Of a stretch of 64,000 nt of DNA, positions 13,881 to 63,745 are shown piece by piece. How positions within the stretch are numbered: the first letter of the stretch is position 1; every line of letters starts with the position of its first letter. The position numbers and the translations under genes were made by a program. Origin of the DNA: Minisyncoccota bacterium (GTDB lineage Bacteria; Patescibacteriota; Minisyncoccia; Phycocordibacterales; UBA918); the NCBI GenBank assembly GCA_041389025.1, contig JAWKSP010000001.1:2-64001 (forward strand), read 5' to 3'. The notes below the pieces were generated by a model. It was not told the origin of the DNA and did not search any database. It saw only the letters and a program-made list of their open reading frames with translations.

Positions 13881-13909
13881 GAAGCCTAGTATATACGCTA
13901 TTTGGTTTA

Positions 13910-19894: not shown

Positions 19895-19991
19895 TTAAGT
19901 TCCCTCCTATACATAAATTAATTTAAATGCAGGTTAAAAAATATTGCCCCATGAAAATACCACTTAAGTACCTGTTAGTCAATATTTTCGT

Positions 19992-20888
19992 CCCTGAATC
20001 CATAAACTCAAATAATCTTATTCAAAGCCATGATCTGATAACTCAGTAACACTCGTACATAATGAAGAGCATACCCTGATACAGAACGAGGAAAAGAAGT
20101 AACCAAGTGTAGATGCTCTTTAAGGTAATCAAACACACATTCAACTTTGGAACGTAGGTTAAGTAACCGTAGCTGCTGTGAGGTAGCGATTTTTTTCTTT
20201 TGACTTGGCCACGGTGGAGCGATAATGGCGGTACCATAATTTTCATAAACAATCCTGCTACGACACAATGTTCATTTAAAATATCAGTCATGACCTGAGC
20301 ATCGTGGATGTTAGCTAGTGTGAAAGCCATTCCACACAGTCTACCATCCAAAGCAACACTGGCATGAAGTTTAAATCCATAGTGCCAACCTTGCCAATTC
20401 TTGCCAAAATCAGCTATATTCTTAGCCACTTTATACCTATCTACTCGATGGTTCTTGCAGACCGGTAACATAGTGGAGTCTATTAGTCTGATAGCTTCGG
20501 TGGTACCAAGTAGTTGGTTTAACAGGTAATACATTTGTGGTAATGCCTTATGGCAGTGATTAACAAAGGCTGAGTATTTGGGTAATTTAAAGTCATTGTT
20601 GTGATAAACCAGAATAGTGTCATGAATATCCTTCAGGGTTTTTTGTTTAAGAACAATAGTGTTCCAAATCAATATGGTTATCACTTCAGATTCGGATAAC
20701 AAAGCCGGTCTACCGGTAACATAGGGCTTGGTATCAATCTGTTGGTCTACCCAATAATATAAATCTACTATATGATGTGAATACAAAAAGAGCATAGTAC
20801 GTTATTTATGTTGGTATATAGATATCGTACGTGCTCTTTTTGTGTTTTAAGGGTTTAATTGGGGATACTTGAGTTTATGGATTCAGGG
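19992..20888 (-). mobile_element. IS982-family insertion sequence (~0.9 kb) with 20-bp terminal inverted repeats and a 6-bp target-site duplication.
   Basis: Left IR CCCTGAATCCATAAACTCAA (19992-20011) and right IR TTGAGTTTATGGATTCAGGG (20869-20888) are perfect reverse complements. A flanking direct repeat TTTCGT lies at 19986-19991 and 20889-20894. The internal ORF has IS982 transposase motifs. Confidence 0.75.
20008..20795 (-). pseudogene. IS982-family DDE transposase, frameshifted. The 250-aa and 86-aa ORF-track entries are two frames of one gene.
   Basis: N-terminal frame has IDSTMLPVCKNHRVDRYKVAKNIADFGKNWQGWHYGFKLHASVALDGRL. C-terminal frame has VECVFDYLKEHLHLVTSFPRSVSGYALHYVRVLLSYQI. 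The frames overlap near a T7 homopolymer at about 20200-20210. Confidence 0.7.
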
Positions 20889-38966: not shown

Positions 38967-41126
38967 TCAAGCAGCAAACGGCGATCGCTCATTCCCCCGT
39001 GATTGACGCAACTTTTTTTTAATTTTATCAGCTGATAAAGGATCATCATATTCCCAATCATTACGATTAGCGACTGATCTTGGAATAAATTGATTTACCC
39101 TTTTGTGACTTATATTTGTGTCATAAGTTTGTACTAGGTTTTCTTTACTGTCTGTCATTGAGGTAGTTACAGGATTTTTTGTATCAATACCACTAAAAGC
39201 AGTTTCTACTTCTGCTGATAATTTTTCCAGTTCTAATTTTTCTTGATTTTTTTTGTGAGTATTGAAAGAAAGATTTCTTTTCTCTTTAATTTCCGAATGA
39301 ACATCTATATTTTTAACATCCTTATTATTTACCAATAAAGAAGACAGGGCTCTTTTTAAGTCATCTGATTTTTTCTCTCTGTCATTATTTTGACTTGGTT
39401 CATTTTTTTCTTTTTCCCTAGGTTTTGGTTTGTCATCTCCCCTTTCACTTTTACCCTTATCATTTCCTCCACTTATACCTTTAAGCACCTCACGTAAATC
39501 AGCTACTGACTTTTTTGGATAAATATTCTCATTTCTATTTTGTTTATCATTAAACTTTTGTTTTTGTTCACCTTGATACTTATCTCTATTTATAAACACC
39601 TCATCCATCGCATTTGTCTTTTCATTTTTTAAAGAAAAGTTATTACCTCCATTACGTTTTAATGCACTCTCATTGAAATTTCCTTCTTTATTTTTCTCTA
39701 CCAACCTTTTTCCTTGATCGTAAAAGTTATTTTGCTCTGTTTCGGGTCTAGATTTTCTTTTAAAGTCAGGATTTTTATTAATATTGTTACCATGATTATT
39801 ATTCAAGGCTTTCTTTTTTGATGCCTCAACTTTTACCGGAGTATGAAGATCAGCCACTATCTTCTCCACCTCATCTCGATTTTTTGTATAATTTTTCCGA
39901 CTAGCAGTAACAGCTATCTCTTTATAAGAAATTTGTGGACGTTGAATTGGCGGTAAGGTTATTGCCGAAAAAGGCTGAGAGCCAATCCCGTCAATCATCA
40001 AAGTTAAATAAATCTGAGCAAAACCAAGATTGACCAAATCAGTAGCAGTAAAACGTGGAGCAAACACTGTCTCTAAGACCTCAGCATCAAAAGGCCCGAC
40101 CCGAAAAGCAATGGTGGTACCGACGTTTCCAAATACCGCATTGCGAACATCTTCTTCCATTTGTTCGATATACTGATGAGCGATAATTAAATTTAAGTGG
40201 TACTTACGAGCTTCTGACAAAATATTAGCAAAAGTAGCGTTAGCGAATGACTGAAATTCATCAACATAAAAATAGAAATTTGGCATAGTTCGCATTTTTT
40301 CTACCGGTAAATCAGCCCGACTCATTGCTCCTAAATAAATACGGGTAGTAAGCATCGACCCGAGCAAATTGGCATTAGTCTCACCAACTAGACCTTTAGA
40401 CAGATTCATAATCAAAATCTTTTTCTCATCCATTATTTGTCTAATGTCAAAACTAGAATGGGGTTGACCGATAATATTTCTAATCAAAGGATTACCGGTA
40501 AACTGTCCAATCTTATTTTGAATAGCCGGTAATGCTTCAGCCATAAAACGGTCTGTATAACCTGCAAACTCTTCGGTCCAGAAAGCTTTCACTGCCGGAT
40601 CTTTGATATAGTCAACTACTTTTGCTCGATAAGCCTTATCAGAAAAAAGCCTATTTACTGAAAGTAAAGTTGTATCCGGATATTCAATCAAAGCCAACAA
40701 AGCATTGGTCAAAATATATTCCATTCTGGCACTCCAAGCATCTACCCAAATCTTTTTAAAAGTAGACATCAAACCAGACACTACTAAATGCCTCTTATCT
40801 GGACCAACATCTTCCATTACATTAAAAGAAATTGGATTATTTAAATCAAAAGGAGCAAAATAAATAACATCATTTATCCTATGCTCAGGTACATATTCAA
40901 GCAAAGTTTCAGCGGCTGATCCGTGTGGATCAATAAAAGCCATTCCTTCACCATTTTGAATATCCTGAGCCGCCATATTCTCAAGTAAAGTGGACTTACC
41001 CATACCAGTTTTACCAACCACATACATATGTCGTTGCCTATCTTTAGCTTTAATACCAAAAGGTACCTGTTGCCCACGAGCATCAGTTTTGGCGAAAAAA
41101 GTAATTTTTTCCGGATCAAAGCTCAT
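38967..41126 (-). CDS. VirD4/TraD/TraG-like type IV secretion coupling-protein ATPase (FtsK/HerA superfamily) with basic low-complexity C-terminal tail
   Basis: Walker A VVGKTGMGKST, Walker B-like LIIAHQYIEQM. The C-terminal ~280 aa are K/R/N-rich. Confidence 0.55.
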   Translation of the reverse strand: MSFDPEKITFFAKTDARGQQVPFGIKAKDRQRHMYVVGKTGMGKSTLLENMAAQDIQNGEGMAFIDPHGSAAETLLEYVPEHRINDVIYFAPFDLNNPISFNVMEDVGPDKRHLVVSGLMSTFKKIWVDAWSARMEYILTNALLALIEYPDTTLLSVNRLFSDKAYRAKVVDYIKDPAVKAFWTEEFAGYTDRFMAEALPAIQNKIGQFTGNPLIRNIIGQPHSSFDIRQIMDEKKILIMNLSKGLVGETNANLLGSMLTTRIYLGAMSRADLPVEKMRTMPNFYFYVDEFQSFANATFANILSEARKYHLNLIIAHQYIEQMEEDVRNAVFGNVGTTIAFRVGPFDAEVLETVFAPRFTATDLVNLGFAQIYLTLMIDGIGSQPFSAITLPPIQRPQISYKEIAVTASRKNYTKNRDEVEKIVADLHTPVKVEASKKKALNNNHGNNINKNPDFKRKSRPETEQNNFYDQGKRLVEKNKEGNFNESALKRNGGNNFSLKNEKTNAMDEVFINRDKYQGEQKQKFNDKQNRNENIYPKKSVADLREVLKGISGGNDKGKSERGDDKPKPREKEKNEPSQNNDREKKSDDLKRALSSLLVNNKDVKNIDVHSEIKEKRNLSFNTHKKNQEKLELEKLSAEVETAFSGIDTKNPVTTSMTDSKENLVQTYDTNISHKRVNQFIPRSVANRNDWEYDDPLSADKIKKKLRQSRGNERSPFAA

Positions 41127-41145
41127 ACTAAAACAGTATAACAGA

Positions 41146-46802: not shown

Positions 46803-46929
46803 TCATCATAAAAGCAATATAATAGATTTATGTCAATATTGACTCAATTGTAATTCGTGCTATTGTATAAAGCAAATAAGTGTTCTTTACTTATTGATCG
46901 TTTCATTCACAACAAAAAAGGAGAGTCTT

Positions 46930-47879: not shown

Positions 47880-48404
47880 TTAACTACCTAAGGCCCCCTT
47901 TTCTTTTTCTATTTTATGTCTAATATCCTTCTTTCCCAAATCATCAAAATACTTACGGGTTATTTGTTTATATAGGGATGATGCCCTTTTTCCGTCTGGA
48001 AACAATATCTTTTCCAATTTATTTTCTTCAATTAAAAAATCAATCAACATTTTGTAATCACCATCTCCTGAAACGAGAACTATTTTGTTAAATTCCTCAG
48101 CTTTATAAAGCCTTTTCATAATTGAGAAAATAATATCAGAATCTACATTTCCTTTCTTTTTTCCAAGCATAGCTGAATTATGTTCGCGAAATACAAGAAT
48201 AAAACCTGCGCTCTGGATTTCTTCATATAGCGATTCATACTTTTGTCCATCTTGTACAAAACCCAAGTAATAATATGCTTTAGCTACATGGTACTTTTTT
48301 TCTAAATAAATTCTAAACCTAGACAAATCAACCTCCCAAGCATTGTCACAATTTTTAATTCCTAAAAATAGATTTTGACCATCCACATAAGCAATATTTT
48401 CCAT
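47880..48404 (-). CDS. NYN-domain (LabA/PIN-like) protein
   Basis: IAYVDGQNLFLGIK...VLVSGDGDYKMLIDFL, typical NYN motifs. Confidence 0.6.
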   Translation of the reverse strand: MENIAYVDGQNLFLGIKNCDNAWEVDLSRFRIYLEKKYHVAKAYYYLGFVQDGQKYESLYEEIQSAGFILVFREHNSAMLGKKKGNVDSDIIFSIMKRLYKAEEFNKIVLVSGDGDYKMLIDFLIEENKLEKILFPDGKRASSLYKQITRKYFDDLGKKDIRHKIEKEKGALGS

Positions 48405-48547
48405 GTAAAAAATTATAACAAATATTATTCCTATTTATTAACCAACCCCTCCGCCACCATCGTCGTCATGTCCCCTACCCATATATATCCAAAGAGGAAC
48501 CCTTCGTACACACGGAGGGTTCCTCTTTGGAAACTTTGGAAATACTT

Positions 48548-49755: not shown

Positions 49756-51075
49756 CTAATTACCTACCAACCCTTCTGCCACCTCGCTTGTCATATCACC
49801 TGCTCCCATAGTCACCACTACTCCGTTAGTTGGAGTGTTTTTTAGCACTTCCTCTATTGCCTCTTCTGGGCTGGATACAGCAGTCGCCTGACCCCCAGCC
49901 TTCTCAATAGCTTGTGACAATTTTTCACTGGAAACATCTGAGGTATTTTCTTCACGAGCAGCGTAAATAGGCAACAATATTACACAATCAGCCTTACTCA
50001 AAGCTTCCACAAAATCATCAAATAACTCACTGGTCCTAGAATATGTATGCGACTGAAAAACTACCGTTGTTTTATGTTTATTGTACAACTCTCTCGTACC
50101 GTTTATCGTCGCTAATATTTCAGTAGGATGATGTCCATAATCGTCATAAACTGGAACTCTTCCACCTTTCTCTCCCATAAAAGTACCTTTATACTCAAAT
50201 CGACGCCATGTACCAGAAAAATTTTCTAACGCTTGTTTTATAACTTCTTTATCCACACCAACAAATGTGGCGGCGGCGGACGCCGCCGCCGCATTTGTCT
50301 GATTATGAACTCCAGGTTGATGGAGCTTCAAGGACAAATCAATTTTATCTTTATAATCAATCACCTTAGCTGATATTTCTTTAAGTACTGGTAAAACCTT
50401 AGCGTCACTAGTATCAGCTATTACCACACCAGTCTCAGGTACCTTCAAAGCTAATTCACGAAAAGCCGACTGCACATCCGCCAAATCTTTATAATAATCA
50501 ACATGTTCAAATTCAACATTAGTAATCACCAGCACATCTGGTTGTAAAGACAAAAAATCTCGCTTATATTCACAGGCTTCCACCACCGCATACTTACTTT
50601 TTCCTGCTCGAAAATTACTACCGGTCTTCGCTCGTAAAGATCCGATAATAGCCGTTGGATCAAGTTCAGCTTGTTCTAAAATATCAGTAAGCATAGCGGT
50701 GGTGGTAGTCTTACCATGGGTACCTGCCACAGCAATAAGGTAATATTCATTAGCCACTGCTCCTAAAGCTTCAAAGTAACTAACTGACTCAATACCCAAC
50801 TCACGCGCTTTTAAAAGTTCAACGTACCCTTCACTTTTTTCATTAACCGCCATCGTATATACTACCAAATCAATATCTTTAGTAATATTTTCTGCTTGTT
50901 GCGGTGAAAGAACCTCTACTCCTTCATTAGCCAAAGCTTCCGTAATTTTAGATAACTCTCGATCAGAACCACTAACCTCCTTACCTTCGTGTAAGAAAAA
51001 ACGTGCTAGAGCCGACATCCCAATGCCTCCGACACCAATAAAATGTATTTTTTTAATTTCTTTCATATTAAACAT
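49756..51075 (-). CDS. murC: UDP-N-acetylmuramate--L-alanine ligase MurC
   Basis: KKIHFIGVGGIGMSALARFFLHEGKEVSGSD, GTHGKTTTTAM. Confidence 0.9.
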   Translation of the reverse strand: MFNMKEIKKIHFIGVGGIGMSALARFFLHEGKEVSGSDRELSKITEALANEGVEVLSPQQAENITKDIDLVVYTMAVNEKSEGYVELLKARELGIESVSYFEALGAVANEYYLIAVAGTHGKTTTTAMLTDILEQAELDPTAIIGSLRAKTGSNFRAGKSKYAVVEACEYKRDFLSLQPDVLVITNVEFEHVDYYKDLADVQSAFRELALKVPETGVVIADTSDAKVLPVLKEISAKVIDYKDKIDLSLKLHQPGVHNQTNAAAASAAATFVGVDKEVIKQALENFSGTWRRFEYKGTFMGEKGGRVPVYDDYGHHPTEILATINGTRELYNKHKTTVVFQSHTYSRTSELFDDFVEALSKADCVILLPIYAAREENTSDVSSEKLSQAIEKAGGQATAVSSPEEAIEEVLKNTPTNGVVVTMGAGDMTSEVAEGLVGN

Positions 51076-52834
51076 AATTTTCTATAAAAAATTTCAAATC
51101 CTTTTTAGTAAGAGAGGTTAAATCAAGATCAAAAACTTTGTCTAATGGTATCCAGTCAAAATCCGCTCCTTCTCTTAATTTCATTTCACTTTTTTGCATT
51201 ATGGATTTTATATAAAAGACGTTTCTATAAGTTTTCTTTTCTTCATTCAAATAATCACACAAAGGTATTACTTCAGTCTCATCTAACATTACTGTCAACT
51301 CTTCTTTTATTTCACGCAGAAAAGTTTCTAATGGACTTTCATTAAATTCACTTAGACCACCAAAAAAAGCCCACTTGTTTGGATTTATTTCTGTATCACC
51401 GTCTCTCTTGTGAAGTAAGACAGATTTAGTTTCTTCGTTATATAAAAAACCTCCAGACCAGAAATTGTCTTCTTTTTTATATTCTTCTAACAAGTCCAAA
51501 AACTCATCGTTCCTTTCGTACTCATTTTTATATTGAGCAAAAGAAGAGAAAGCTGGAGAAAATAATATAATATCACCATTTTTAGCAACCTCTCTAGCTT
51601 TTACAAAAGCTTGTTTTAAACCTTCTGTAACTACTATATTTACATTGCCATTCATCTCGTCAACCAATTTATCGGTACCATTACCCGGAGTTAGAAAAAC
51701 CTGTTTACAATGTTCCTTTATCGCCTCAGTCAATGAAATTAAGTCGATATTTTTATCTGCCCCACCTGCTATCAAAATTATATTTTTGTTACCAATATCC
51801 AAAGCTTCCAAAGCTACTTTAGTAGCTTGTGGTGTAGTAGCGTTGTTGTCATTATATATCCGAACATTATCTATGGTCTTTACTAGTTGTAGTCTACCCT
51901 CTACTCCCGAAAAACTAGTTAGTCCTTCAAAAATTTCTTCATCACTTAAAGACAAAGACTTTAGAGCTTCATAAGCCAGAGCTGCATTAAGGCGATTATG
52001 CTCACCTGGCATAGCCAACAAGCAATCCTCGGGAATCACCGAAGAGTCGGTTAATCTTATTTCTTGTTTTAAATGTAAATCAGGAAAAATTTTTTTTATC
52101 CACTCAAACACTTCCGGGGTTGTAATCAGAGTTCCGCTTTCATCTTGATGTAAAAATATTTGCGCCTTATCTTTAAAATATAATTCCATCGCTTCTTCTT
52201 TTGTCTTGCCCCCAACGCCATAATAATTTAAATGGTCCTCCATAAAGTTAGTAAAAACTGCTACTTGTGGCGAAAGCCCCGACCAACCAAAACCTTGCAA
52301 TTGCCAAGAATCTAACTCCATCACACAAAGCGAATCTTCCTTAACTTCATTAAGTAACTTTAAATTTGATACTCCTCGTACATTACCACCAAGGAGTATT
52401 TTTTCACCGGTAACAACCGAGAGTACGTGATGAACCATGCCTGTCACGGTACTTTTACCGCGAGTGCCGGTCACACCTATAATGGGGATTTTTGAAAGTT
52501 CGGCAAATAAAGAGGCGGATTGTTTTAGAGGCACGCCAGCTTCGCTGGCGTGCCTTAAATACTCAGAATCCTGAGGAACACCAGCTGACACCAAAACTAA
52601 ATCAACATTTTCAAAATCTTCTTTCTCATGCTTTCCCAAGACAAACTTAATATTCGGTAAATCTTTTAGTTTTGAAACAGAAACTGCCAATTCTTTTTCA
52701 GACTTTAAATCGGTCACAATTACCTCCTTTGCTCCCGATTCAGCAATAAAAAGAGCGTCTCCAACACCACGCCCCAAGAGACCCAATCCCATCACAGTCA
52801 CTTTTTTTCCTTTAAAATAATCTTGAAAATTCAT
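51068..52834 (-). CDS. murD: UDP-N-acetylmuramoylalanine--D-glutamate ligase MurD fused to a C-terminal NUDIX hydrolase domain
   Basis: N-terminus KVTVMGLGLLGRGVGDALFIAESGA and GTRGKSTVTGM (Mur ligase). Residues ~450-588 carry a Nudix box GGLSEFNESPLETFLREIKEELTV. 8-nt overlap with murC. Confidence 0.85.
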   Translation of the reverse strand: MNFQDYFKGKKVTVMGLGLLGRGVGDALFIAESGAKEVIVTDLKSEKELAVSVSKLKDLPNIKFVLGKHEKEDFENVDLVLVSAGVPQDSEYLRHASEAGVPLKQSASLFAELSKIPIIGVTGTRGKSTVTGMVHHVLSVVTGEKILLGGNVRGVSNLKLLNEVKEDSLCVMELDSWQLQGFGWSGLSPQVAVFTNFMEDHLNYYGVGGKTKEEAMELYFKDKAQIFLHQDESGTLITTPEVFEWIKKIFPDLHLKQEIRLTDSSVIPEDCLLAMPGEHNRLNAALAYEALKSLSLSDEEIFEGLTSFSGVEGRLQLVKTIDNVRIYNDNNATTPQATKVALEALDIGNKNIILIAGGADKNIDLISLTEAIKEHCKQVFLTPGNGTDKLVDEMNGNVNIVVTEGLKQAFVKAREVAKNGDIILFSPAFSSFAQYKNEYERNDEFLDLLEEYKKEDNFWSGGFLYNEETKSVLLHKRDGDTEINPNKWAFFGGLSEFNESPLETFLREIKEELTVMLDETEVIPLCDYLNEEKKTYRNVFYIKSIMQKSEMKLREGADFDWIPLDKVFDLDLTSLTKKDLKFFIENYV

Positions 52835-52900
52835 ACTGTTATCATACGCAAATTTTACTACTTTACCACCCCCTAAACATGTTACACTCTAAATAAGGTC

Positions 52901-53896: not shown

Positions 53897-53952
53897 GAAC
53901 AGACTCTAAAATTACATAAAACTTTTGAGATATTTTGTCGTTTGCGTAATTT

Positions 53953-54391: not shown

Positions 54392-54598
54392 TCAATATTT
54401 TCTACCCACCTTGCAATAGTCAACATAATTTTTTTTATTTTTGCCGAGTAATAACAAAACACCCGGCAAGATTAAAAACAAACCTGACAGCTTTATCAAC
54501 AAAAGCTCTAAGTTTGTTAGTTTGTTTGCTGGATCGTCTCCTAATAAAATGAGACAACCCAAAATAAAAAGTACCCCAACTGCGATTTTCATTTTCAT
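54392..54598 (-). CDS. Possible small 2-TM membrane protein
   Basis: 68 aa, hydrophobic. Confidence 0.3.
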   Translation of the reverse strand: MKMKIAVGVLFILGCLILLGDDPANKLTNLELLLIKLSGLFLILPGVLLLLGKNKKNYVDYCKVGRKY

Positions 54599-54705
54599 AT
54601 CAATCTCCAGTATTTAAAGGTGTATACATTAAATCATATTTAATATGTATTGTCAAATGTAAATAGCCTTATTTTGCACGCACTTCATGGGGTATAATTA
54701 TACTA

Positions 54706-55071
54706 ATGAAACAATACAAAATACTGCTAGCTCTGCTTGCTTTGCCACAATTAGCCTTTGCTCAAGCCTCCCTGCAAACTTTCATCCCAAACCTAGTTAA
54801 ATTTGTCAGTAATGTTTTAATTCCTTTCCTTTTTGCGATTGCCTTTTTTATTTTTGTTTTTGCTGCTTTTAAATACTTTGTTTTAGAAAGTGCCAATGAA
54901 GAAGGTCGCGAGAAAGCCAAAAACCTTGCCCTTTACACCATACTAGCCTTCCTTTTCTTAATAATATTTTGGGGATTAATAAATGTTATCGCTAATTCTG
55001 TTGGTCTACAAGGAACCGACCAGCCCTGTCCTGATTATATAATGACAATAGATCCAACCAAATGCCCATAA
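54706..55071 (+). CDS. Small secreted/membrane protein with signal peptide plus two TM helices (VirB2/TrbC-pilin-like topology, speculative)
   Basis: MKQYKILLALLALPQLAFAQA signal sequence, two hydrophobic helices, C-terminal CPDY...CP. Confidence 0.4.
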   Translation: MKQYKILLALLALPQLAFAQASLQTFIPNLVKFVSNVLIPFLFAIAFFIFVFAAFKYFVLESANEEGREKAKNLALYTILAFLFLIIFWGLINVIANSVGLQGTDQPCPDYIMTIDPTKCP

Positions 55072-55101
55072 AAAATATCCCAGTCATATTGACTGGGACT
55101 A

Positions 55102-55647
55102 TCATGTAGGTAAGTCTAGCTCTTCGCTCAACTCTTTGTATACCACTTGATTATTTTTATCTCTTTTACCTAAATAAACGTCCCATACCAACTTCTCTTC
55201 TTTAAGTATTCGAGGAAGAAAAATTCTATCCACCGGTAATAAGTTTAAATTCAAAATATCATCCGGCGCAAAAAAATGTGGTGTTCGCATTTCTTTTTTG
55301 CCTTGAGGTATTCCCTTGTACTTGATAAGAGTGAAGAAATAGACAGTCATGTCAGCTTGGCTATCCTCACTATCAGGCCAAAAGAAATTTATTTTTGCTA
55401 CCAGACACAAATCCTCTTCATACGCCCTAACCCCCGACTCCTCGAATAGTTCTCTTATAGCAGTTTGCAACAAACTTTCATTTGGTAACTTTTTACCACC
55501 ATAACCGTTCCAGACATTTGCGCTGTTTTTAAGCTGGATTCCTTGCTTGTGGATATTACTTACCTTCTGCGCCAAACAAACTCTTCCTCTTTCATCCAAT
55601 AAATAAACTACCGTGGCCAATTCTGTCTTAGCATTCATTGTATTCAT
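55102..55647 (-). CDS. NUDIX hydrolase
   Basis: Nudix box GGKKLPNESLLQTAIRELFEESGV. Confidence 0.7.
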   Translation of the reverse strand: MNTMNAKTELATVVYLLDERGRVCLAQKVSNIHKQGIQLKNSANVWNGYGGKKLPNESLLQTAIRELFEESGVRAYEEDLCLVAKINFFWPDSEDSQADMTVYFFTLIKYKGIPQGKKEMRTPHFFAPDDILNLNLLPVDRIFLPRILKEEKLVWDVYLGKRDKNNQVVYKELSEELDLPT

Positions 55648-55704
55648 AGCAAAATCCTCCTTCAGACTCTTCTTTGCTTAGTATACTTTTATACGACAAT
55701 AAAG

Positions 55705-55740
55705 AAAAGGCACCCTGCTTCGCGTGGTGCCTTTTCTTTT
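55705..55740 (-). terminator. Terminator hairpin just downstream of the 16S rRNA 3' end
   Basis: aaaaggcacc-ctgcttcgcgt-ggtgcctttt. On the minus strand it is followed by ttttctttatt. Confidence 0.55.
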
Positions 55741-57199
55741 AGACAAAACTCTCTTTTGTCTTATCCTTAAAGGTCCGGTCTTTCCCTGGGGTCTGATACC
55801 ATTTCAGAGAATTGAGTATCATCTCTCGTTGCGTGCTCAATTGATACACACAACATCGACCAATTAGCTGTCATTGCAGTTCTGTTACCAGAGTGCGACA
55901 ACGTGTCCAATTGGAATTAATCCACGACCAGCTTCCGCTAGCCGTGCCTTGTTACGACTTAGTCCTTGTTATCGAGTTTACCGTCGGCCCACGCTAGGTG
56001 GGACTTCGGGCACTCCCGACTCCCCTGACTTGACGGGCGGTGAGTACAAGGCTCGGGAACGTATTCACCGCGGCGTTGCTGATCCGCGATTACTAGCGAT
56101 TCCGGCTTCATGAGGGCGAGTTGCAGCCCTCAATCCGAACTGAGGATGGTTTTATTAGGATTTGCTCCACATTACTGTATTGCGTCCCGTTGTACTACCC
56201 ATTGTATCACGTGTGCAGCCCAAGGCATCAAGGGACATGCTGACCTGGCGTCATCCTCACCTTCCTCTCCCGTGAGGGAGCAGTCTCGTCTGACACTTAT
56301 AACAGACAACGAGGGTTGCGTTCGTTTCCCCACTTAAGGGAACAGCTCAAGCCACGAACTGACGACGGCCATGCATCACCTGCCATACACCCTCGAAGGC
56401 TTCTTCGGTTTCCCGAAGCGTGCAGTATGGTTTCTAGCCTTGGTAAGGTTCTTCGCTTAGCTACGAATTAAGCCACATGATCCACCGCTTGTGCGAGCCC
56501 CCGTCTATTCCTTTGAGTTTTAAGCTTGCGCTCGTACTACCCAGGCGGTCTGTTTAACGCGTTAGCTTCGCCACTAAGAGGGTCGATACTCCTAATAGCC
56601 AACAGACAGCGTTTAGGGCGTGGACTACTCGGGTATCTAATCCGATTCGCTACCCACGCTTTCGTGCCTCAGCGTCAAGAATGTGCCAGTAAGCTGCCTT
56701 CGCATTTGGTATTCCCCATGATATCAACGGATTTCACCCCTACACCATGAGTTCTGCTTACCTCTCACACCTTCTAGTTATACCGTTTCGAATGCGGCTG
56801 TAAGGTTGAGCCCTACAATTTAACATCCGACTAATATAACCGCCTACGCACCCTTTACGCCCAGTAAATCCGGATAATGCTCGGGGCCTCTGTATTACCG
56901 CTCCTGCTGGCACAGAGTTGGGAGCCCCTTATTCATGAGGTAACGTCAATAAACTTCCTCCCTCATAAAAGGTGTTTACGTCCCGAAGGACTTCATCCAC
57001 CACGCGGCGTCGCTCCGTCAGGCTTTCGCCCATTGCGGAAGATTCTCGACTGCAGCCTCCCGTAGGAGTATGGACCGTGTCGCAGTTCCATCGGTGGGGG
57101 TCAGGCTCTCACCTCCCCTAGCCGTCGTAGCCTTGGTAAGCCGTTACCTTACCAACAAGCTGATAGCCCGCAGGCCGTTCCAAGAGCGATAAATCTTTA

Positions 57200-57513
57200 C
57201 CCAGCCCTACTTTTTATCTTCAAGCCAACTGGTCTCAATTCTTTTTTTGAGACCTTGTATCGCACTACCATGTTGCTTAAGTTTGTTTTCACGAACTCGT
57301 GCATCACGTTCATTACGATAAGCTTCTGCGTATATCAAAATCCATTTACCTCGCTCTCTCCTAGTAGCTTTATTACTATTAGAATTATGAGAATTTAAAC
57401 GATTTCCTAAATTCTTAGTGAAACCAATATAAATCTCTTTTGTAAGTGAGTGTTGAATCAGATAAACAATAAACATTACCTTGATTGTATCAAAGATAAA
57501 AAGTAGAGCTGGG
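57200..57513 (-). other. Intervening sequence / intron-like insertion in the 16S helix-10 (V2) region, closed by a 21-bp perfect helix
   Basis: Stem strands CCCAGCTCTACTTTTTATCTT (57493-57513, rRNA sense) and AAGATAAAAAGTAGGGCTGGG (57200-57220) pair over 21 bp. They enclose 272 nt that carry an ORF. Confidence 0.7.
57207..57476 (-). CDS. GIY-YIG nuclease-domain protein (homing-endonuclease-like) encoded inside the 16S insertion
   Basis: MFIVYLIQHSLTKEIYIGFTKNLGNRLNSHN fits GIY-x10-YIG...R...H...N. AAGG lies 3 nt upstream of the ATG. Start is taken at M16 of the track ORF 57207..57521. Confidence 0.65.
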   Translation of the reverse strand: MFIVYLIQHSLTKEIYIGFTKNLGNRLNSHNSNSNKATRRERGKWILIYAEAYRNERDARVRENKLKQHGSAIQGLKKRIETSWLEDKK

Positions 57514-57789
57514 ACCATCAAGTATTATTCCGACTTTCGCCGGGTTATCCCTGACTCTTGGGTACGTACCTACGTGTTCCTACCTCGTCTGCCATGAATC
57601 TAAATTCATTCGACTTGCATGCCTCATCCACGCCGCCAGCATTCATCCTGAGCTAGGATCAAACTCTAATTGAAGACAGGTACTGAAAGAAAAAATCTTT
57701 CTGTGTATCTGCGTCTTCTGAGCAATGCGCTTGTACTATTGCGCGCTCGAAGAAGACGATTTACCTAAAGGATAAGACAAAAGAAAGCT

Positions 57790-57865
57790 AAATGAAACAA
57801 GGAGTGAAACTCCTATGTTGAATTTACGTCTCAATTTTTCCTTTCCTAGAAAAAATTGCTAGACG
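57790..57865 (+). repeat. Structured repeat family, copy D (type 1), in the 16S leader
   Basis: aaatgaaacaaggagtgaaactcctatgttgaatttacgtctCAATTTTTcctttcctagAAAAATTGctaga. Confidence 0.65.
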
Positions 57866-57900: not shown

Positions 57901-57978
57901 GCTGATGCATTAAATGAACAAATGTCCGAAGGACATATTGTGAATTTACTTCTCAATTTTTTCCTTTCCTAGAAAAAA
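57901..57978 (+). repeat. Structured repeat family, copy E (type 2), in the 16S leader
   Basis: taaatgaacaaatgtccgaaggacatattgtgaatttacttctCAATTTTTTcctttcctagAAAAAATTGctaga. Confidence 0.6.
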
Positions 57979-58328: not shown

Positions 58329-59069
58329 TTATTTATAAACAATCACTTCTATATCTTCCGGTTCCACATCCGGTCCTAACAATTCTACCAAATTTTTAAT
58401 GGCTCTATTTTGGAGCCTGGTACAACCAAAAGTTTCAATTTCCCAGAAACGACCGTTGTCAGCATACCCTTCCGTACCGTGAATACGATGTAGCTCCCAA
58501 CCTTTAACATCCCACTTGATTTCAAATTTTACTTCACCCATCGCATTAAGTGGATGACCATAAGGTAAACAACCGAGTGGTAAATGAGCCATAACACGAC
58601 GAATGTTTGATGTCGGACACCAAGTCGGCATCGTGTCTATTTTGGTAACAATTCCTCGCACTACATCTTTTGGTAAAGTATCTGGAGAAGGCGTTACTAC
58701 AGCAAAGCCGATGACAGGCTCATACCCATCAAGTCCACGCCTATAATACGCCAATTCTTTGGTGGTGTAGTTTACCGTTATCACATGCTTTTTGTTAGAC
58801 CAAAAAGACAATTCTTCCTTTGGTACAAACTGACCACCGTAAATTTTTCTTTCACCATTCGGTAAAAGTTCTACAGTAAAACGGCCATACTTTTCCATCG
58901 GGTTTTCAGTTTTTTTTACAGTCCTTACCTCTTTAACTTCTGGTCGGTAAGGTTTTGTCTCAATCGGAGTATCTGCAGAACCAAAATGCATCGTTCCACA
59001 GCCAATTAAAGAAATTATAATTATTAAAAAACAAACTATGCGCCAACAAAGCACAAGAATTTTTTTCAC
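58329..59069 (-). CDS. Lipoprotein L,D-transpeptidase (YkuD domain)
   Basis: Lipobox LIGCG. Catalytic region HRIHGTEGYADNGRFWEIETFGCTRLQNRAI (H-x-n-[ST]-x-GC-x-R). Confidence 0.65.
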   Translation of the reverse strand: MKKILVLCWRIVCFLIIIISLIGCGTMHFGSADTPIETKPYRPEVKEVRTVKKTENPMEKYGRFTVELLPNGERKIYGGQFVPKEELSFWSNKKHVITVNYTTKELAYYRRGLDGYEPVIGFAVVTPSPDTLPKDVVRGIVTKIDTMPTWCPTSNIRRVMAHLPLGCLPYGHPLNAMGEVKFEIKWDVKGWELHRIHGTEGYADNGRFWEIETFGCTRLQNRAIKNLVELLGPDVEPEDIEVIVYK

Positions 59070-59380
59070 GAGAAATTCCCCCTACTAAAAAATTGAACCA
59101 ATCAAAACTATACCACATTTATATAAAAAAGCAAAAACCCTACCGAAGTAGAGTTGCATCTTTTTCTCATATAGATTATACGAGAAAATTTTAAATTTAA
59201 GAACAAACAATATGCAAAGATCAAAAGACGGCAAGTTATGTATAAATAAGGCACGGCAGACAGTCCAGCTGTGGCGGTGCGTTAATTTATAATATAGCGG
59301 CGATTTGATTTATCGGTACAATCTCGGCAGACAGTCTTATTTTAAGCTGTGGCGGAGAGACGGATAGTATGCATATTTTG

Positions 59381-59430
59381 GTTTTGAAAAGAAAAAGTTT
59401 TGATGACGAGCGAGCAAGCTCGCTCGTCAT
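59381..59430 (-). terminator. Rho-independent terminator downstream of 59449..60732
   Basis: atgacgagcgagc-aa-gctcgctcgtcat, 13-bp stem, followed on the minus strand by a T-rich run. Confidence 0.65.
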
Positions 59431-59448
59431 TTGTTGCAATTGCTATTT

Positions 59449-60732
59449 TTAAGACACTTGCTTTAACCTAACTGGAAATAACAGGTCTTGCTTATCAGCT
59501 TTTTTAATCATCTTAACAAGACTTCGGGTATTAATGTCAACAATACGCTCTCTTTTTTCACCAGCGTTTCGCGGTATGTTTACCTTAAGCTGATTTTTAT
59601 TGATGCGAGTAACAGTCACCGTTATTTCAGCAGTATCACTACCAAAAGGTTTAGTGACAAGAACGCTGACACTATTAGTGTCACTATCTTTGTCATAACT
59701 TAAGGAATTGATATTTTCTTTACTAAGTAGATGTTTGTCATGTATGACGATCCCAGATAAATCAACAACCTCCTCATCAACCAACTCTTCCAGATCATCA
59801 ACCTGCTCTTCCAGATCATCAAACCGACCATTTACCGAAGCAAATTTTCTTTTGGTTGATATATTAAATCGCCACAAAGCAATCAAAATACCGATAATAA
59901 TAAGAGACAAAGTACCGAACCCTACAAGACCCCAAATTGGGTATCTCTGCATTTTTCTTAGCTCAGCCTCAACCCTTTGCAGCCCACGAGTAGCCTCACC
60001 AAGTAACTTCTGATGACCTTCTTGCACGCCGACGTTAGTAGAATGACCAAGAGCTAATTCCCTTTGCGCTTGCTCAAGCTTTCCCATCAAAGAGCGTAAC
60101 GACTCCAACTCACCCTCAAGTTCATTAATTTTCTGAACCTTAGTGGCGTTATCAGAGTTTTGTTCTCGCAAACGAGCTATTTCAGCTTCTTGCCTCTTTA
60201 TCCGCTCTTGATTGTCCTGAAACTGCTTGGCAAACAAGTAAGCTGGATCTACTTCAGGTTTGGAGCTGGGTTTGATAATTTTTGTTTCCGTTTTTTCAAC
60301 AGAAACAGGTTCATTATTTGACCCAGCTTGTGAAAAAAAACCTGGTGCAATATGAAACAGTCCTCGGTTATCACGAATCTGAAAAAACTCCTCCACAGTG
60401 AGTTGGGCCGGCAGATTATTGTACTTAACCCACGCTTCCGCACACTTAAGAGGGTTATCCCTTATTCGCTCAGGCAATTTATCGAATGCATAAAACGCTC
60501 GAGTTTCAGCATTCGCACCCATCGTCTCACAGGCAGCCACTCCAAGTGCAAAAGCAAGTCCGTATTGCTGAATCACTTTCGGCACATCTGCATAGTTTAC
60601 AAATTGCTTCATAGCTTCTGGTGTCATTTTAGTAAAAGCTGGTTTTGGCTCAAAGACCTCTTCCGCCACTACCAACAAACTACACGTCAAAAAATAAAAC
60701 AAAATAGCAATTTTAGTGAATTTTTTCATCAC
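59449..60732 (-). CDS. Hypothetical secreted/membrane protein with coiled-coil region and one internal TM
   Basis: Signal peptide MMKKFTKIAILFYFLTCSLLVVA. Coiled coil around EAEIARLREQ...ELESLRSL. TM is IWGLVGFGTLSLIIIGILIALW. Confidence 0.45.
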   Translation of the reverse strand: MMKKFTKIAILFYFLTCSLLVVAEEVFEPKPAFTKMTPEAMKQFVNYADVPKVIQQYGLAFALGVAACETMGANAETRAFYAFDKLPERIRDNPLKCAEAWVKYNNLPAQLTVEEFFQIRDNRGLFHIAPGFFSQAGSNNEPVSVEKTETKIIKPSSKPEVDPAYLFAKQFQDNQERIKRQEAEIARLREQNSDNATKVQKINELEGELESLRSLMGKLEQAQRELALGHSTNVGVQEGHQKLLGEATRGLQRVEAELRKMQRYPIWGLVGFGTLSLIIIGILIALWRFNISTKRKFASVNGRFDDLEEQVDDLEELVDEEVVDLSGIVIHDKHLLSKENINSLSYDKDSDTNSVSVLVTKPFGSDTAEITVTVTRINKNQLKVNIPRNAGEKRERIVDINTRSLVKMIKKADKQDLLFPVRLKQVS

Positions 60733-60883
60733 TTTTTCTCCTTTTCAAAGTTTCAAAGTTCTTCACGAGCTATTCTCGTGTTGGCAATCTTGTACCATAT
60801 TTTTTACAAAAATGCAAGCGTATGGTGTTTGAAATAGAAAAAAGCGGGATGTAAGCGTCCCGCTTTAGTTTTGCAAAATTTTT

Positions 60884-61318
60884 TTACATTTGTTTAGCTG
60901 GCAATCGAAAACCAACTTCGCTTCGGCCAATTTTTAGAAATTGGTCAATTGAAATCAATTCAACGATTCCCACCAAATTCCCGTTGCGATCAATCCTTGC
61001 TAATTCTTCATGTAAGCCGGCATTATAACCAAGGAAAGCATCAGTATAGCCATCGATTGTTCTATACTCTTCTGGTACAAACTTAAGACAATCATTTTTT
61101 TCAGCTTCTTGTCTGGCAAATACACCGAGAATTCTCGGCGAGAATTTGTTGTCATTAATATAATTAGCAAATTTTGCCAGAAAGTCACCCCTACCGAGAC
61201 CGGTCTCAACTATAAATATTTTCTCAAAACAAACGTTATTCTGAGTATTTTGTGCTAAAACTGGTTGAACGAACAATAGTAATGTACAAATCGAAAATAT
61301 AAAAAATACCTTCTTCAT
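60884..61318 (-). CDS. Small secreted hypothetical protein
   Basis: Start at the internal MKKVFFIFSICTLLLFVQPVLAQ (signal peptide). The track ORF extends to 61369. Confidence 0.4.
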   Translation of the reverse strand: MKKVFFIFSICTLLLFVQPVLAQNTQNNVCFEKIFIVETGLGRGDFLAKFANYINDNKFSPRILGVFARQEAEKNDCLKFVPEEYRTIDGYTDAFLGYNAGLHEELARIDRNGNLVGIVELISIDQFLKIGRSEVGFRLPAKQM

Positions 61319-61443
61319 TTCAATACTCCTACTCAAATTAAAAAGTTGGCCTTCTATTTTATAACACATTTTTCACAAAAAAGCAAGAAAAACAGGTGTA
61401 ATGTTTCTACATCACACCTGTTGTTTGTAGTAGGACTAAAAGT

Positions 61444-61956
61444 TTATTTTGCCCACAATATTTGACCACCTGAACCCATAGTGTTACTCATTTCAGTTAT
61501 AGATTCAGACATAGATCCAGATTGAGCCATAGGATTACTAACATTGAACAGACCACAGTTAAATCCACGACACGCTTTAGCTGCCATAGCTTCTCTGAAG
61601 AAGTGACCTTGAATAGCCGCCGCTCCAGTACCACCTAGCACTGCCAGAATGGCTCTGTCGAGAATAGAATCAGATTCAAGTATATGAACAGTCCTCTTCC
61701 AATTACCACTAAGCTGTTCACCGGTTTCAGGATTAACTCCGCCTAAATTTTCGCCAGTAACAGGATCAATTCCTCGCCAGTCGGCAACAACCAGAGTTAC
61801 CACCTTGCCATTCAAATGAGTCCGGTTAGTAACTGTCTCCAGTCTAGCAGAATCAGTTTCTGTACTTGATTTTTTTGTGTAGATGTTTGACGCACATCCT
61901 GACAAAAATAACATCAAAGCTAAAAACAGTAGCAATAGAAACTTATTTCTATTCAT
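61444..61956 (-). CDS. Putative lipoprotein
   Basis: MNRNKFLLLLFLALMLFLSGCASN lipobox. Confidence 0.45.
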   Translation of the reverse strand: MNRNKFLLLLFLALMLFLSGCASNIYTKKSSTETDSARLETVTNRTHLNGKVVTLVVADWRGIDPVTGENLGGVNPETGEQLSGNWKRTVHILESDSILDRAILAVLGGTGAAAIQGHFFREAMAAKACRGFNCGLFNVSNPMAQSGSMSESITEMSNTMGSGGQILWAK

Positions 61957-62314
61957 TTTCTTTTACCTCCTCTTCAATGTAGTATGGTGGTGGACAATCA
62001 GGGTATATATCAACCCTAAGATGTGAAGTTGATGTCGGAAAATATCCAGCACCACCAATACCACCGCCACCATCACAGTTACAAAAACCAACCATGACCG
62101 GTGTAATAAAACCACCACCGCCACTCTGAGTATAATACTTCTCTTCTCTTACTTTACACTCAGGTATTACCAAGACCTGTCTCATAACAACTTCTTTTGG
62201 TGCAGGATCAACTGACAACAAAGTAGACTTTGAACTAATTTTGTTATCAGCCAAAACTAAAGAAGAAAGGCTCAAGAAAACAATTGAAACTAAAACAAAA
62301 ATTTTAATCTTCAT
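61949..62314 (-). CDS. Small secreted Cys/Gly-rich protein
   Basis: Signal peptide MKIKIFVLVSIVFLSLSSLVLA. GGGG runs, CxC motifs. Confidence 0.4.
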   Translation of the reverse strand: MKIKIFVLVSIVFLSLSSLVLADNKISSKSTLLSVDPAPKEVVMRQVLVIPECKVREEKYYTQSGGGGFITPVMVGFCNCDGGGGIGGAGYFPTSTSHLRVDIYPDCPPPYYIEEEVKENE

Positions 62315-62484
62315 TTAAATAACTCCTTCTTTGCAAAGAACACAAAAATAACTGTGTGCCAACCTTTTACCATATTTTTTACAAAAAAGCAACTATGTGG
62401 TGACAAAAAAACGTTGGCCGAATTACTGTGGCCAACGTTTTAATAATACTTATTATTTTGTTTGAAGAAAATTTCCGAAAATTT

Positions 62485-62949
62485 TTACGGCTGATAATTC
62501 TGCCAGAATGCACCTACACCAGCATCAAATATACCATGTGAGCTGGTTACAGCAGTAGACCCAGCCGGACCACCTTCAGTCATTGACTGATTAAAGGCAC
62601 CGGAGTGCGAAGATACGAAGCCTTCAAATCCAACAACCGCTTGGTTATTAGCGCAGTCAGCTGTGCAATCAGAATTTGGCGCAAAAATTGTCCCAGTCGT
62701 ATCGGTGCGAAGTTTCATATTTTCCTCCACTTTGGCAAAGGTTTCAGTTTTAGTGAAATCACCATAACCCCAACCTTCAGAATCAGATTGAACATTGGAA
62801 TTGAATTCTCCAAACCCCACAACTCCAAAAGCTGATTCTCCGGTATTTCCTCCCATGTCCGAACACCCGTATACACAGGTAGCAGAAGCGGTCGCTGAAA
62901 AGAAAAACAGAACAGAAACAACGATAGACAAAAAAATGGTTTTCATCTC
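62485..62949 (-). CDS. Small secreted Cys-containing protein
   Basis: Start at the internal MKTIFLSIVVSVLFFFSATASA. The track ORF extends to 63015. Confidence 0.4.
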   Translation of the reverse strand, partial: EMKTIFLSIVVSVLFFFSATASATCVYGCSDMGGNTGESAFGVVGFGEFNSNVQSDSEGWGYGDFTKTETFAKVEENMKLRTDTTGTIFAPNSDCTADCANNQAVVGFEGFVSSHSGAFNQSMTEGGPAGSTAVTSSHGIFDAGVGAFWQNYQP

Positions 62950-63202
62950 AATTTCCTTTTTAAAAAATTTATTTAAAATAACAAAGTTGGAGTGATGTTG
63001 AGTAACAAAAGTCACCCAACATCGATTTTTGCCCCGCCGAAGCGGGGAGTTTGGCGAATTGTCTAACTAATTTGACTATCCCCACTCCAACGGAACTGGC
63101 ACTAATATACATGGATTTAAAAATATGTCAAGCAAGTAATTGTGAACTTTTGTCAATGTCTAAATTTGCAAAACTTTTAGACTTTTTAAATACTTTTCTA
63201 AT

Positions 63203-63745
63203 TTAGTTGCATAAAAAGTACACAATATTATCATCATCATAAGCACAGGCATTTGAAGAAGTGTTTCCATTTGGTCCACACGAAACCAACACACTAGAGT
63301 TTGTAGCTCCGCCGTCATCTATACCTCGACAACCTCTAGTGTTAGGTCTACACTCGTAATCTTCATCTAGATAATATGGTTCACCCCATGGATCAATTGC
63401 ATTTTTTATATACGGACCTCTCCAACTAGAACCAAAACTTCCATCTGTACCAACAAGACCTGAAGTATTCAAAGATAAATCTTTTTCATTATTACCAGGA
63501 AGAGGGGGTGAAAACGGTGGACAGTAATTAGAGTTTCCATTTGGATATATATTTGTATCTAAATTTAGCATTGTCATAGCTTTAAAGATACTATTAAGTT
63601 CAGCTTGTGCCTTAGCTATTTTGGCTTGCTCCCTCGCATCATTTAGAGATGCTAATACTACCGCTGCTAAAATACCAATAATCGCGATCACTACCAAAAG
63701 TTCTATTAGAGTAAAGCCTTTTATTGAAAAGCTATTTTTTTTCAT
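63203..63745 (-). CDS. Type IV pilin / pseudopilin (prepilin-type N-terminal cleavage/methylation domain)
   Basis: MKKNSFSIKG|FTLIELLVVIAIIGILAA, canonical class III signal (G-1, F+1, E+5). Confidence 0.75.
   Translation of the reverse strand: MKKNSFSIKGFTLIELLVVIAIIGILAAVVLASLNDAREQAKIAKAQAELNSIFKAMTMLNLDTNIYPNGNSNYCPPFSPPLPGNNEKDLSLNTSGLVGTDGSFGSSWRGPYIKNAIDPWGEPYYLDEDYECRPNTRGCRGIDDGGATNSSVLVSCGPNGNTSSNACAYDDDNIVYFLCN

Follow-up and report, generated by a model that had tools for sequence, protein, structure and literature searches.

The window analysed here is a 64,000-nt stretch of contig JAWKSP010000001.1 (assembly GCA_041389025.1), and it carries on its minus strand a full-length 16S ribosomal RNA (rRNA) gene whose 3' tail lacks the anti-Shine-Dalgarno (aSD) sequence. 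Pairing of the aSD with the Shine-Dalgarno (SD) motif of the mRNA is the textbook route of bacterial translation initiation. In the covariance-model (CM) alignment, the conserved AAGTCGTAACAAGG (also written AAGUCGUAACAAGG; 55960..55947, minus strand) and helix 45 are normal, and the tail that follows differs from that of E. coli (Table 1). When the Rfam model was re-run on the 3' part of the gene, the tail aligned column by column to the model consensus GGAUcACCUCCUUu with maximal posterior probability. In E. coli numbering, C1535A and C1536U are changed, and U1537, C1538 and C1539 are retained. Helix 45 continues directly into GGAUUAAUUCCAAU, with which a CCUCC:GGAGG helix is impossible. An earlier note, made from the letters of the window, had proposed that the 16S tail lacks the canonical aSD and that no CCUCC lies between the 16S body and its terminator. 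Both proposals are borne out by the CM alignment, which gives AUUCC in place of CCUCC, and by the minus strand from 55990 to 55640 (up to the terminator), where none of CCTCC, CTCC and CCTC occurs.

The leader and trailer of the 16S gene cofold into a processing stem of 22-25 bp, which the trailer enters directly. The terminator beyond it was not seen in the consensus scan because its loop is above the limit of that scan, and folding reveals the hairpin. Independent reproduction of the tail comes from L244, a 2121-nt contig assembled by Logan from run SRR28338157; it starts inside helix 45 and matches window positions 53826-55946 at 100% identity. The GC content is even along the window. The earlier note had also offered a second insertion at the very 3' end as a way of hiding the aSD. 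This did not hold up, since the model is aligned to its last position, the stem and terminator follow, the Logan contig is identical and relatives share the architecture. According to Rfam, the window contains no large-subunit (LSU, 23S) rRNA gene, and none follows the 16S gene; the sole other RNA match is a tRNA-Ile(GAU) at 54173-54247.

Table 1. Features of the 16S rRNA gene, promoter-like boxes and SD-like motifs in the window. Distances are to the start codon.
Feature	Sequence	Coordinates	Strand	Remarks
16S rRNA gene		57674..55910	-	Rfam RF00177, 1361.5 bits, full model 1-1533
Helix 45	CACGGCUAGC-GGAA-GCUGGUCGU	55946..55924	-	CM alignment; normal, loop GGAA
16S 3' tail	GGAUUAAUUCCAAU	55923..55910	-	Equals E. 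coli 1529-1542, there GGAUCACCUCCUUA
aSD core position	AUUCC, replacing CCUCC	55917..55913	-	Equivalent to E. coli 1535-1539
Weak local mini-hairpin	UCC-AAUU-GGA	55915..55906	-	3 bp; 3-bp version of YUCM-loop-KGAR of relatives
Pre-16S processing stem, 5' strand	AGCUUUCUUUUGUCUUAUCCUUUAGG	57789..57764	-	Leader/trailer cofold
Pre-16S processing stem, 3' strand	CCUUUAAGGAUAAGACAAAAGAGAG	55773..55749	-	Leader/trailer cofold
Intrinsic terminator of the 16S transcription unit		55740..55697	-	Hairpin, then U run; fold of 55690-55765, -31.1 kcal/mol
-10 box, VirD4-like gene 38967..41126	TATACT in cTGTTATACT	41135..41140	-	8 nt before ATG
-10 box, murD-NUDIX 51068..52834	TATGAT	52841..52846	-	6 nt before ATG
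-10 box, secA	TATACT	13888..13893	-	7 nt before ATG at 13880
-10 box, type IV secretion system (T4SS) pilin gene 54706..55071	TATAAT (GGTATAAT+7)	54693..54698	+	7 nt before ATG
-10 box, NYN gene 47880..48404	TATAAT	48412..48417	-	7 nt before ATG
SD-like motif, gene 19097..19894	AGGAGGG	19902..19908	-	7 nt before ATG
SD-like motif, gene 28748	AAGGAGG			Before GTG 29620; alternative leaderless-type ATG at 29560
SD-like motif, gene 45206	GGGGG			
SD-like motif, gene 45831	AAAGGAGGG			
SD-like motif, gene at 46930	GGAGAG	46920..46925	+	4 nt before GTG 46930
SD-like motif, NUDIX gene 55102..55647	AAGGAGG	55656..55662	-	8 nt before ATG
SD-like motif, gene 58329	AGGGGGA			
SD-like motif, gene 59449	AAGGAG			
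SD-like motif, gene 61444	GAGGAGG			
SD-like motif, gene 61949	AAGGAG			
Five genes, four of them SD-like (58329, 59449, 61444, 61949)		58329..62314	-	In a ~5.5-kb block, ~58.1-63.8 kb

By its sequence, the window comes from a Parcubacteria (Paceibacteria/Paceibacterota) genome. Relatives are represented here by loci of at most 15 kb, cited by L numbers. The 16S gene is 90% identical to that of UBA918 (L060), 87% to that of a Kaiserbacteria metagenome-assembled genome (MAG; L010) and 94% over 523 nt to that of a Paceibacteria MAG (L063); identity to Saccharibacteria is ~74%. Proteins of the window have 100% identical counterparts at NCBI, filed under 'Candidatus Paceibacterota bacterium', and the best matches of MurD are in Kaiser-, Nomura- and Pacebacteria. 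The gene content also fits Parcubacteria, with gatB, obg, secA, murB/C/D, a glycan cluster, a VirD4-like gene, the T4SS pilin, type IV pilin-like proteins and a GIY-YIG open reading frame (ORF) within the 16S gene; ribosomal protein genes are absent from the window. To the left of the 16S gene, the pilin gene, tRNA-Ile, murD/murC and others lie in synteny with L003, L030, L063 and L071; at the right end of the window (63865-64000) the synteny is with L010 and L060.

The loss of the aSD is shared widely among relatives, as seen in two scans for 16S 3' ends. Scan 1 took one genome per species and the pattern GTCGTAACAAGG-N10-GGAAG-N8-GGAT followed by a base other than C, and it returned at least 120 loci. 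Among the matches listed, 62 loci have GGATTACCTCCTTT (intact aSD; mainly Saccharibacteria, Bacteroidota and Fibrobacter), and 54 share the helix-45 signature of the window, GGCACGnnTAGCGGAAGCTGnnCGT, all of them without CCUCC. Judged by these matches, the helix-45 sequence of the window is a lineage signature of aSD-less Parcubacteria. The labels of the 54 loci include Kaiser-, Nomura-, Ryan-, Jorgensen-, Lloyd-, Lipton-, Taylor- and Yonathbacteria. The tail GGATTAATTCCAATTGGA is identical in the window and in L003, L010, L030, L060, L063 and L071; other typical aSD-less tails are GGATTAATTCAATTTGAA, GGATTAACTCAAATTGAG and GGATTCATTCCGATTGGAA. Taking the 54 listed loci and the window together, CCTCC occurs up to 105 nt downstream in just 2 of 55 tails. 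Scan 2 covered metagenome contigs with an identical helix 45 and required GGATC (C1533 retained), again with at least 120 loci. Of the 120 matches listed, 114 are without CCTCC, and their tails are A/T-rich and vary greatly (for example GGATCATTTTTTTAAA and GGATCAATTAAACTAA); six have the canonical aSD, and there are a few one-step intermediates (CACCTTCT, CATCTCCT, CACCTCAT). So many different degenerate tails fit relaxed selection after loss of function.

Several of the MAG labels conflict with the 16S genes that they accompany (L003, L004, L009, L014, L017, L023, L030, L039, L068 and others). Contigs labelled 'Candidatus Saccharibacteria' or 'Spiroplasmataceae' bear Parcubacteria-type aSD-less 16S genes, and contigs labelled Rhodoglobus, Dongiaceae or Alphaproteobacteria bear Saccharibacteria-type 16S genes, which suggests that labels are wrong or bins contaminated. 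The aSD is also completely lost outside the Candidate Phyla Radiation (CPR), in Candidatus Zinderia insecticola CARI (L054, CP002161.1), whose tail is GGATTACATTTTAAATT.

The loss of the aSD is real, typical of the lineage and already published for the clade. An anti-SD was detected in just 48% of Parcubacteria (Tsurumaki et al. 2022, RNA 28:1041, PMC9297842), and the aSD-less Parcubacteria overlap the group lacking uL1; a mitochondrion-like pattern of ribosomal-protein loss in CPR is noted there too (PMC9297842). The earlier note had called such a loss rare in bacteria. This is true overall, as 128 taxids without a consensus aSD were found by Amin et al. 2018 (PMC6107228), and it is not true of this lineage, where the loss is the rule (PMC9297842).

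The 16S gene has further peculiarities away from its 3' end. A 293-nt insertion (57210..57502) lies in the 5' domain, between model positions 188 and 192, and is nearly filled by a minus-strand ORF (57207-57521, 104 aa) with a GIY-YIG domain (PF01541, E=5.6e-17). Since the Kaiserbacteria locus L010 aligns across the region, it seems to have the insertion as well. L010, L060 and L065 have further 16S insertions of ~0.4-0.85 kb near helix 44 (equivalent to window 56040), which are absent from the window gene, and their 16S genes are ~2.0-2.6 kb long. Upstream of the processing stem, the leader contains a tandem duplication (57789-57855 / 57911-57977; spacing 122 nt, 70% identity over 67 nt). Each repeat ends in a small hairpin, with compensatory stem differences (AGGAG/CUCCU vs AUGUCC/GGACAU), and the repeats may be duplicated rRNA promoter or leader elements. 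Between the 16S gene and tRNA-Ile (window 54173-55740) lie the NUDIX and T4SS pilin genes. Since the pilin gene is also there in L003, L010, L030, L063 and L071, this spacer has been colonised by coding genes lineage-wide.

The former aSD position carries a small self-complementary element in many relatives. The 49 distinct aSD-less tails from the listed scan 1 matches have an invariant GGAUU (1529-1533) and U1537; 40 keep C1538, 39 have A at 1535 and 41 have U at 1536. From 1536 onward, a 4-bp stem of the type YUCM-loop(2-6)-KGAR, always in the same register, is present in 31 of the 49, against 3.7 +/- 1.8 (maximum 12) in 1000 shuffles of the 3' part; these counts are inflated by the relatedness of the tails. 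The stem covaries at its first pair (U-A 24, C-G 5, G-C 1, U.G 1) and at its fourth (A-U 22, C-G 9). The mini-hairpin is a sub-lineage feature, because only the weak 3-bp form is present in the sub-lineage of the window and many scan 2 tails have none. Its 3' arm extends past the position of the E. coli 3' end. Pairing of this arm with the 16S 5' end, as in the cofold UUCAAU:AUUGGA, was considered and rejected, as the 5' ends of relatives do not covary with it; the mini-hairpin is therefore local. It may be part of the mature rRNA, where it might, for example, block 3' exonucleases and so set the end.

The main positive clue to how genes are initiated, unremarked in the earlier note, is that -10 boxes sit right against the start codons. 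The most enriched 5-mers of the window, counted over 40 nt upstream of each first ATG, are GTTAT and TGTTA (15 genes vs 2.6-2.7 expected, z ~8), followed by TTATA, TATAC and ATACT, and these combine into TGTTATAMT, an extended -10 box. ATAAT and TATAA (z ~11) are the foremost upstream 5-mers of the 54 related loci. A box was counted when it matched at least 5 of 6 positions, with the distance taken from its end to the ATG. The counts peak sharply at 6-7 nt: 9 of 52 window genes have a box there, the genome loci have 31 hits (255 genes; ~2 at any other offset) and the 98 metagenome loci have 34 (427 genes; 3.1 per offset). Same-strand neighbours are often only 2-26 nt apart, and the boxes fall in or at the end of the upstream gene.

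Individual boxes are kept in orthologues. The VirD4-like gene has TGTTATACT at 8 nt, and the L062 and L059 orthologues retain TGTATACT, 6-7 nt from the ATG. For murD, TATGAT is found in L030 and L063 and TATCAT at 6 nt in L071. The secA box is retained 6-10 nt upstream in L121, L122, L070 and L114, and the pilin gene has TGTATAAT in L071, GGTATACT in L063 and GGTATGAT in L003. The flippase gene has a box conserved in orthologues and a short leader without an SD. Such conserved extended -10 boxes abutting the ATG point to leaderless mRNAs, suggesting that a large share of the mRNAs would be leaderless or nearly so. Leaderless initiation is the one mode that needs no aSD. A search of the literature at hand found nothing specific on leaderless translation in Parcubacteria, Patescibacteria or CPR. 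The same peak, at 6-7 nt in 13 of 92 genes, is present in Saccharibacteria (the aSD_TM7 group, e.g. L007, L008, L024 and L029), which keep the intact aSD GGATTACCTCCTTTCT; leaderless-type architecture may therefore predate, or be independent of, the loss of the aSD in CPR. The MurD protein (588 aa) has a fused C-terminal NUDIX domain; most of its close homologues are unfused and ~455 aa long, and fusions also occur in P0006, P0012, P0017 and P0037.

SD-like motifs are found at a minority of genes. With all candidate starts inspected, ~10 of 56 genes in the window have a strong SD-like motif at a spacing of 4-9 nt (Table 1). Duplexes with the canonical aSD reach a free energy (dG) of -6 or lower at 9 of 56 first-ATG starts, compared to 3.9 +/- 1.5 in shuffles. 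GGAG or GAGG starting at -14 to -8 occurs 10 times in the window vs 0.8 expected from the rate at -45 to -20 (p = 2e-8), 28 vs 9.7 times in the 54 genome loci (p = 1e-6) and 39 vs 24 times in the 98 metagenome loci (p = 0.003). The enrichment covers 7-12% of genes across the data sets and ~12% in the window. The same pipeline gives 24% in 50 kb of E. coli K-12, and 40% with annotated starts, so that the rate in the window is a third to half of the E. coli level. E. coli K-12 was used as the SD control since the proteobacterial and spirochaete loci were unfit, many of their 'genes' being ORFs in 23S rDNA. The NUDIX mRNA would have a leader, because a TATACT box lies ~30 nt upstream of its AAGGAGG. 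Residual GGAG:UUCC pairing was considered as an explanation of the motifs and rejected, as GGAA is not enriched and the motifs are also present in genomes without a tail UCC (L032, L050, L085).

The earlier note had held that native genes carry no SD. This was confirmed for the examples it gave (gatB, obg, secA, the flippase and the glycosyltransferase (GT) genes) and applies to most other housekeeping genes, and it fails for the ~10 of 56 starts that do carry a motif. It had treated SD enrichment upstream of starts as evidence that would speak against the loss; enrichment is present, and it is confined to the minority of genes and to the level described above. Of the three SD-bearing genes that it had singled out, those at 19097 and 46930 have their motifs, and the insertion sequence (IS) transposase (20043..20795) has none (dG +0.6); the motifs are also not limited to these three.

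The SD-like genes are unevenly distributed, with 5 of 8 genes right of 55100 vs 5 of 48 left of it (Fisher p = 0.003), and their GC is slightly higher (0.378 vs 0.349, p = 0.035). In L010 and L060, the gene at 63865-64000 is found 0.7-1.2 kb upstream of the 16S gene, and in the window the distance is 6.2 kb (tblastx). In the same comparison, the genes 58329..63745 have no homologue in the L010 and L060 loci, 63865-64000 being the only part shared. Because the right-flank gene lies so near the 16S gene there, the block at ~58.1-63.8 kb is an insertion relative to these two loci, the closest relatives whose flanks can be compared. The NUDIX gene is relocated in the window, since relatives have NUDIX between peptidyl-prolyl isomerase (PPIase) and fmt-def. 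The SD-like genes of the window are thus mostly accessory or relocated, and import from SD-using donors is the simplest reading of them.

The conservation of some motifs is less easily accommodated. Gene 19097..19894 belongs to a tiny family found only in Parcubacteria, and the family is syntenic, in the gatB-obg-holin-secA-murB-Wzy-flippase-X-GT cluster of the OLB19-like loci L121-L123. The orthologue there (45% identity) has cAAGGAGGcttaaATG where the window has tAGGAGGGaacttaaATG, with AAGGAGG at equal spacing. The NUDIX gene has a G-rich motif in four of five orthologue lineages, with GGAGGA, GGGAGA or AGGGGA in three further lineages at ~50% identity, and the fifth has a leaderless-type box. 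PgeF-like orthologues in L062 and L110 (43% identity) have GGAGG 5 nt upstream, and both contigs have aSD-less tails. A systematic test of 82 orthologue pairs had little power, with five informative pairs and 0 of 5 concordant for the motif. The view of the earlier note, that foreign genes carry SDs useless in this host, therefore suits the block absent from L010 and L060 and the relocated NUDIX gene, and does not suit 19097..19894, which is syntenic and keeps its motif at 45% identity.

Two other features stand apart in this part of the comparison. A DDE transposase (the IS at 20043-20795) and a small ORF (20970-21440) interrupt the glycan cluster, which is otherwise collinear in L121-L123. 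A 1617-aa ORF at 1270-6123 has no Pfam match, and its local GC is 0.41-0.43 vs ~0.35 for the window.

Taken together, these results show loss of the aSD from the 16S rRNA of this Parcubacteria lineage, no motif complementary to the new tail upstream of genes, and a conserved peak of extended -10 boxes close to the start codons. The explanation held likely on this basis is that no SD has co-evolved with the new tail and that most mRNAs would be leaderless or near-leaderless, come from their own promoters and engage the ribosome directly at the AUG. Most genes, including tightly packed same-strand neighbours, would be transcribed from a promoter of their own, and the ribosome would bind the 5'-terminal AUG without SD-aSD pairing. 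The remaining genes may use SD-independent entry or coupling. The self-complementary element at the former aSD position of many relatives (3 bp in the window) probably marks or protects the rRNA 3' end.

Several observations weigh against this interpretation. Strict boxes at 4-10 nt cover ~17 of 56 genes (13 of 52 by the first-ATG rule); looser matches add further candidates, and other SD-independent routes must therefore also operate. The word leaderless reflects promoter geometry alone, and gene starts were called crudely, as the first ATG of a long ORF. The two scans list 120 matches each, of at least that many, and both prescribed the base that follows GGAT (anything but C in scan 1, C in scan 2), so that the proportions of tail types are not unbiased. 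SD-like motifs are enriched at the canonical position in all three aSD-less data sets, and their conservation in three diverged orthologue families is not predicted by a fully SD-blind ribosome.

It is very improbable that the aSD is still there and only displaced, whether through extra inserted sequence near the 3' end, faulty assembly or chimeric joining at the conserved 16S gene. CPR 16S genes do carry insertions (293 nt here, and the large ones near 56040 in L010, L060 and L065), and 16S genes are common points of chimeric joins in metagenome assemblies. Against this, the CM alignment is contiguous to model position 1533 with high posterior probability, CCTCC, CTCC and CCTC are absent before the terminator, the trailer pairs with the leader in the processing stem, and the window contains no GATCACCTCCTT-like piece beyond chance. 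The Logan assembly is identical, both flanks are syntenic with relatives, and CCTCC is found within 105 nt downstream in just the two related tails noted above. A chimeric contig, with SD-like genes flanking the 16S gene on both sides, was rejected on the two-sided synteny and the even GC. The unusual tail, the 293-nt insertion with its ORF and the lack of a linked 23S gene could also suggest that this 16S copy is a decaying pseudogene and that functional rRNA is encoded elsewhere. In CPR genomes, rRNA genes usually come as one set, often unlinked, which counts against such a copy. The gene scores 1361 bits over the full model with its functional centres conserved, it has an intact processing stem, a tandem promoter-like region upstream and a terminator, and its architecture and position are kept in many relatives, so that decay of this kind has next to no likelihood.

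Re-tuning of the aSD, such that the new tail UUAAUUCC pairs with a co-evolved SD such as GGAAUUAA or GGAA, could draw on the retained UCC (1537-1539), which allows 3-4 bp with GGAG or GGAA, on one gene (63203..63745) with AAGGAAUUA upstream, and on the over-representation of TTAAT, AATTA and ATTAA upstream of the genes of relatives. The duplex of the own tail with the 20 nt upstream averages -2.53 kcal/mol, however, vs -2.29 +/- 0.20 in shuffles and -3.13 at internal ATGs, and GGAA, GGAAU, AATTA and TTAAT have no positional peak at -15 to -5. TATAAT(T) boxes, together with spacers rich in A and T, account for the over-represented A/T-rich words. The wide differences among the tails of relatives fit decay, unlike a conserved pairing partner, and no variant aSD with a matching variant SD was found by Amin et al. 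(PMC6107228); re-tuning is thus highly unlikely. Less easily dismissed, although still unlikely, is that the SD-like motifs are functional through a partner other than the 16S tail, such as a further rRNA gene, a mature 3' end of greater length, or some different RNA or protein. GGAG/GAGG peaks at -14 to -8 in all three data sets, the spacing of 5-9 nt is like that of true SDs, the motifs are conserved in the PgeF-like (43%) and 19097 (45%) families and in 4 of 5 NUDIX lineages, and they also occur in L032, L050 and L085, whose tails keep no UCC. Yet the motifs are found at just ~7-12% of genes, the informative orthologue pairs were all discordant, and the block absent from close relatives, the relocated NUDIX gene and the higher GC fit import from SD-using donors. 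Among the conserved families, the PgeF-like orthologues are the ones whose contigs show the aSD-less tail, and no candidate partner was found in the window.

A bolder proposal, to which only a small probability is given, is that GGAGG is under selection 5-9 nt upstream of a subset of leadered genes (orthologues at 43-50% identity), through tail-independent SD recognition or a second, specialised rRNA, and that the covarying terminal mini-hairpin represents a new kind of 16S 3' end. If true, it would imply a route that works without the 16S 3' tail or with a second, specialised rRNA.

A large, free-living-like radiation without the rRNA half of the SD-aSD pair is a natural experiment on how start codons are found. 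For annotation, SD-based start prediction is unsuited to these genomes, and the geometry of promoter boxes is a better guide. Since the loss is already published for the clade, the window is an example of it and not a discovery. Modestly new, and testable, are the orthologue-conserved promoter-at-start signature, the heterogeneous and rapid decay of the tails, the covarying mini-hairpin of a sub-lineage and the small, significant class of SD-like motifs without a partner.

The aSD-lacking Parcubacteria of Tsurumaki et al. (PMC9297842) are the same lineage with the same feature, CCUCCU being undetectable in about half of them. That work reports the absence of the motif only, and its text contains neither 'leaderless' nor 'hairpin'; the tail forms, the mini-hairpin, the abutting -10 boxes and the residual SD-like class are described here. 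The taxa of Lim et al. 2012 and Amin et al. 2018 (PMC6107228), which are Chryseobacterium, Elizabethkingia, Riemerella, Blattabacterium, some Mycoplasma and Carsonella, and likewise Zinderia (L054), resemble the window in having no CCUCCU, largely absent SDs and no compensating variant SD. They are Bacteroidota or reduced endosymbionts, in which SDs are reported to be essentially absent, whereas the lineage of the window keeps a small SD-like peak.

Bacteroidota-type initiation is alike in its SD-poor genes and SD-independence, but the aSD is conserved there and mutated away in the window. In Bacteroidota the aSD is reportedly present and sequestered by bS21/bS18/bS6 (Jha et al. 2021). The leaderless-dominated Actinobacteria, Deinococcus and halophilic archaea (the 'leaderless' classes of GeneMarkS-2) differ in that their aSD is intact and their leadered and internal genes rely on SDs. 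As in the window, a -10 box (or TATA box) at a fixed short distance takes the place of the ribosome-binding site as the leading upstream motif in these taxa. Mammalian mitochondria have a 12S rRNA without an aSD and leaderless mRNAs, 13 in number, that are served by dedicated factors. They share with the window an aSD-less rRNA together with mRNAs that start at or near the start codon, a likeness that for the window is suggested by the position of its -10 boxes; the genome of the window, in contrast, is free, holds hundreds of genes and has sigma-70-type promoters.

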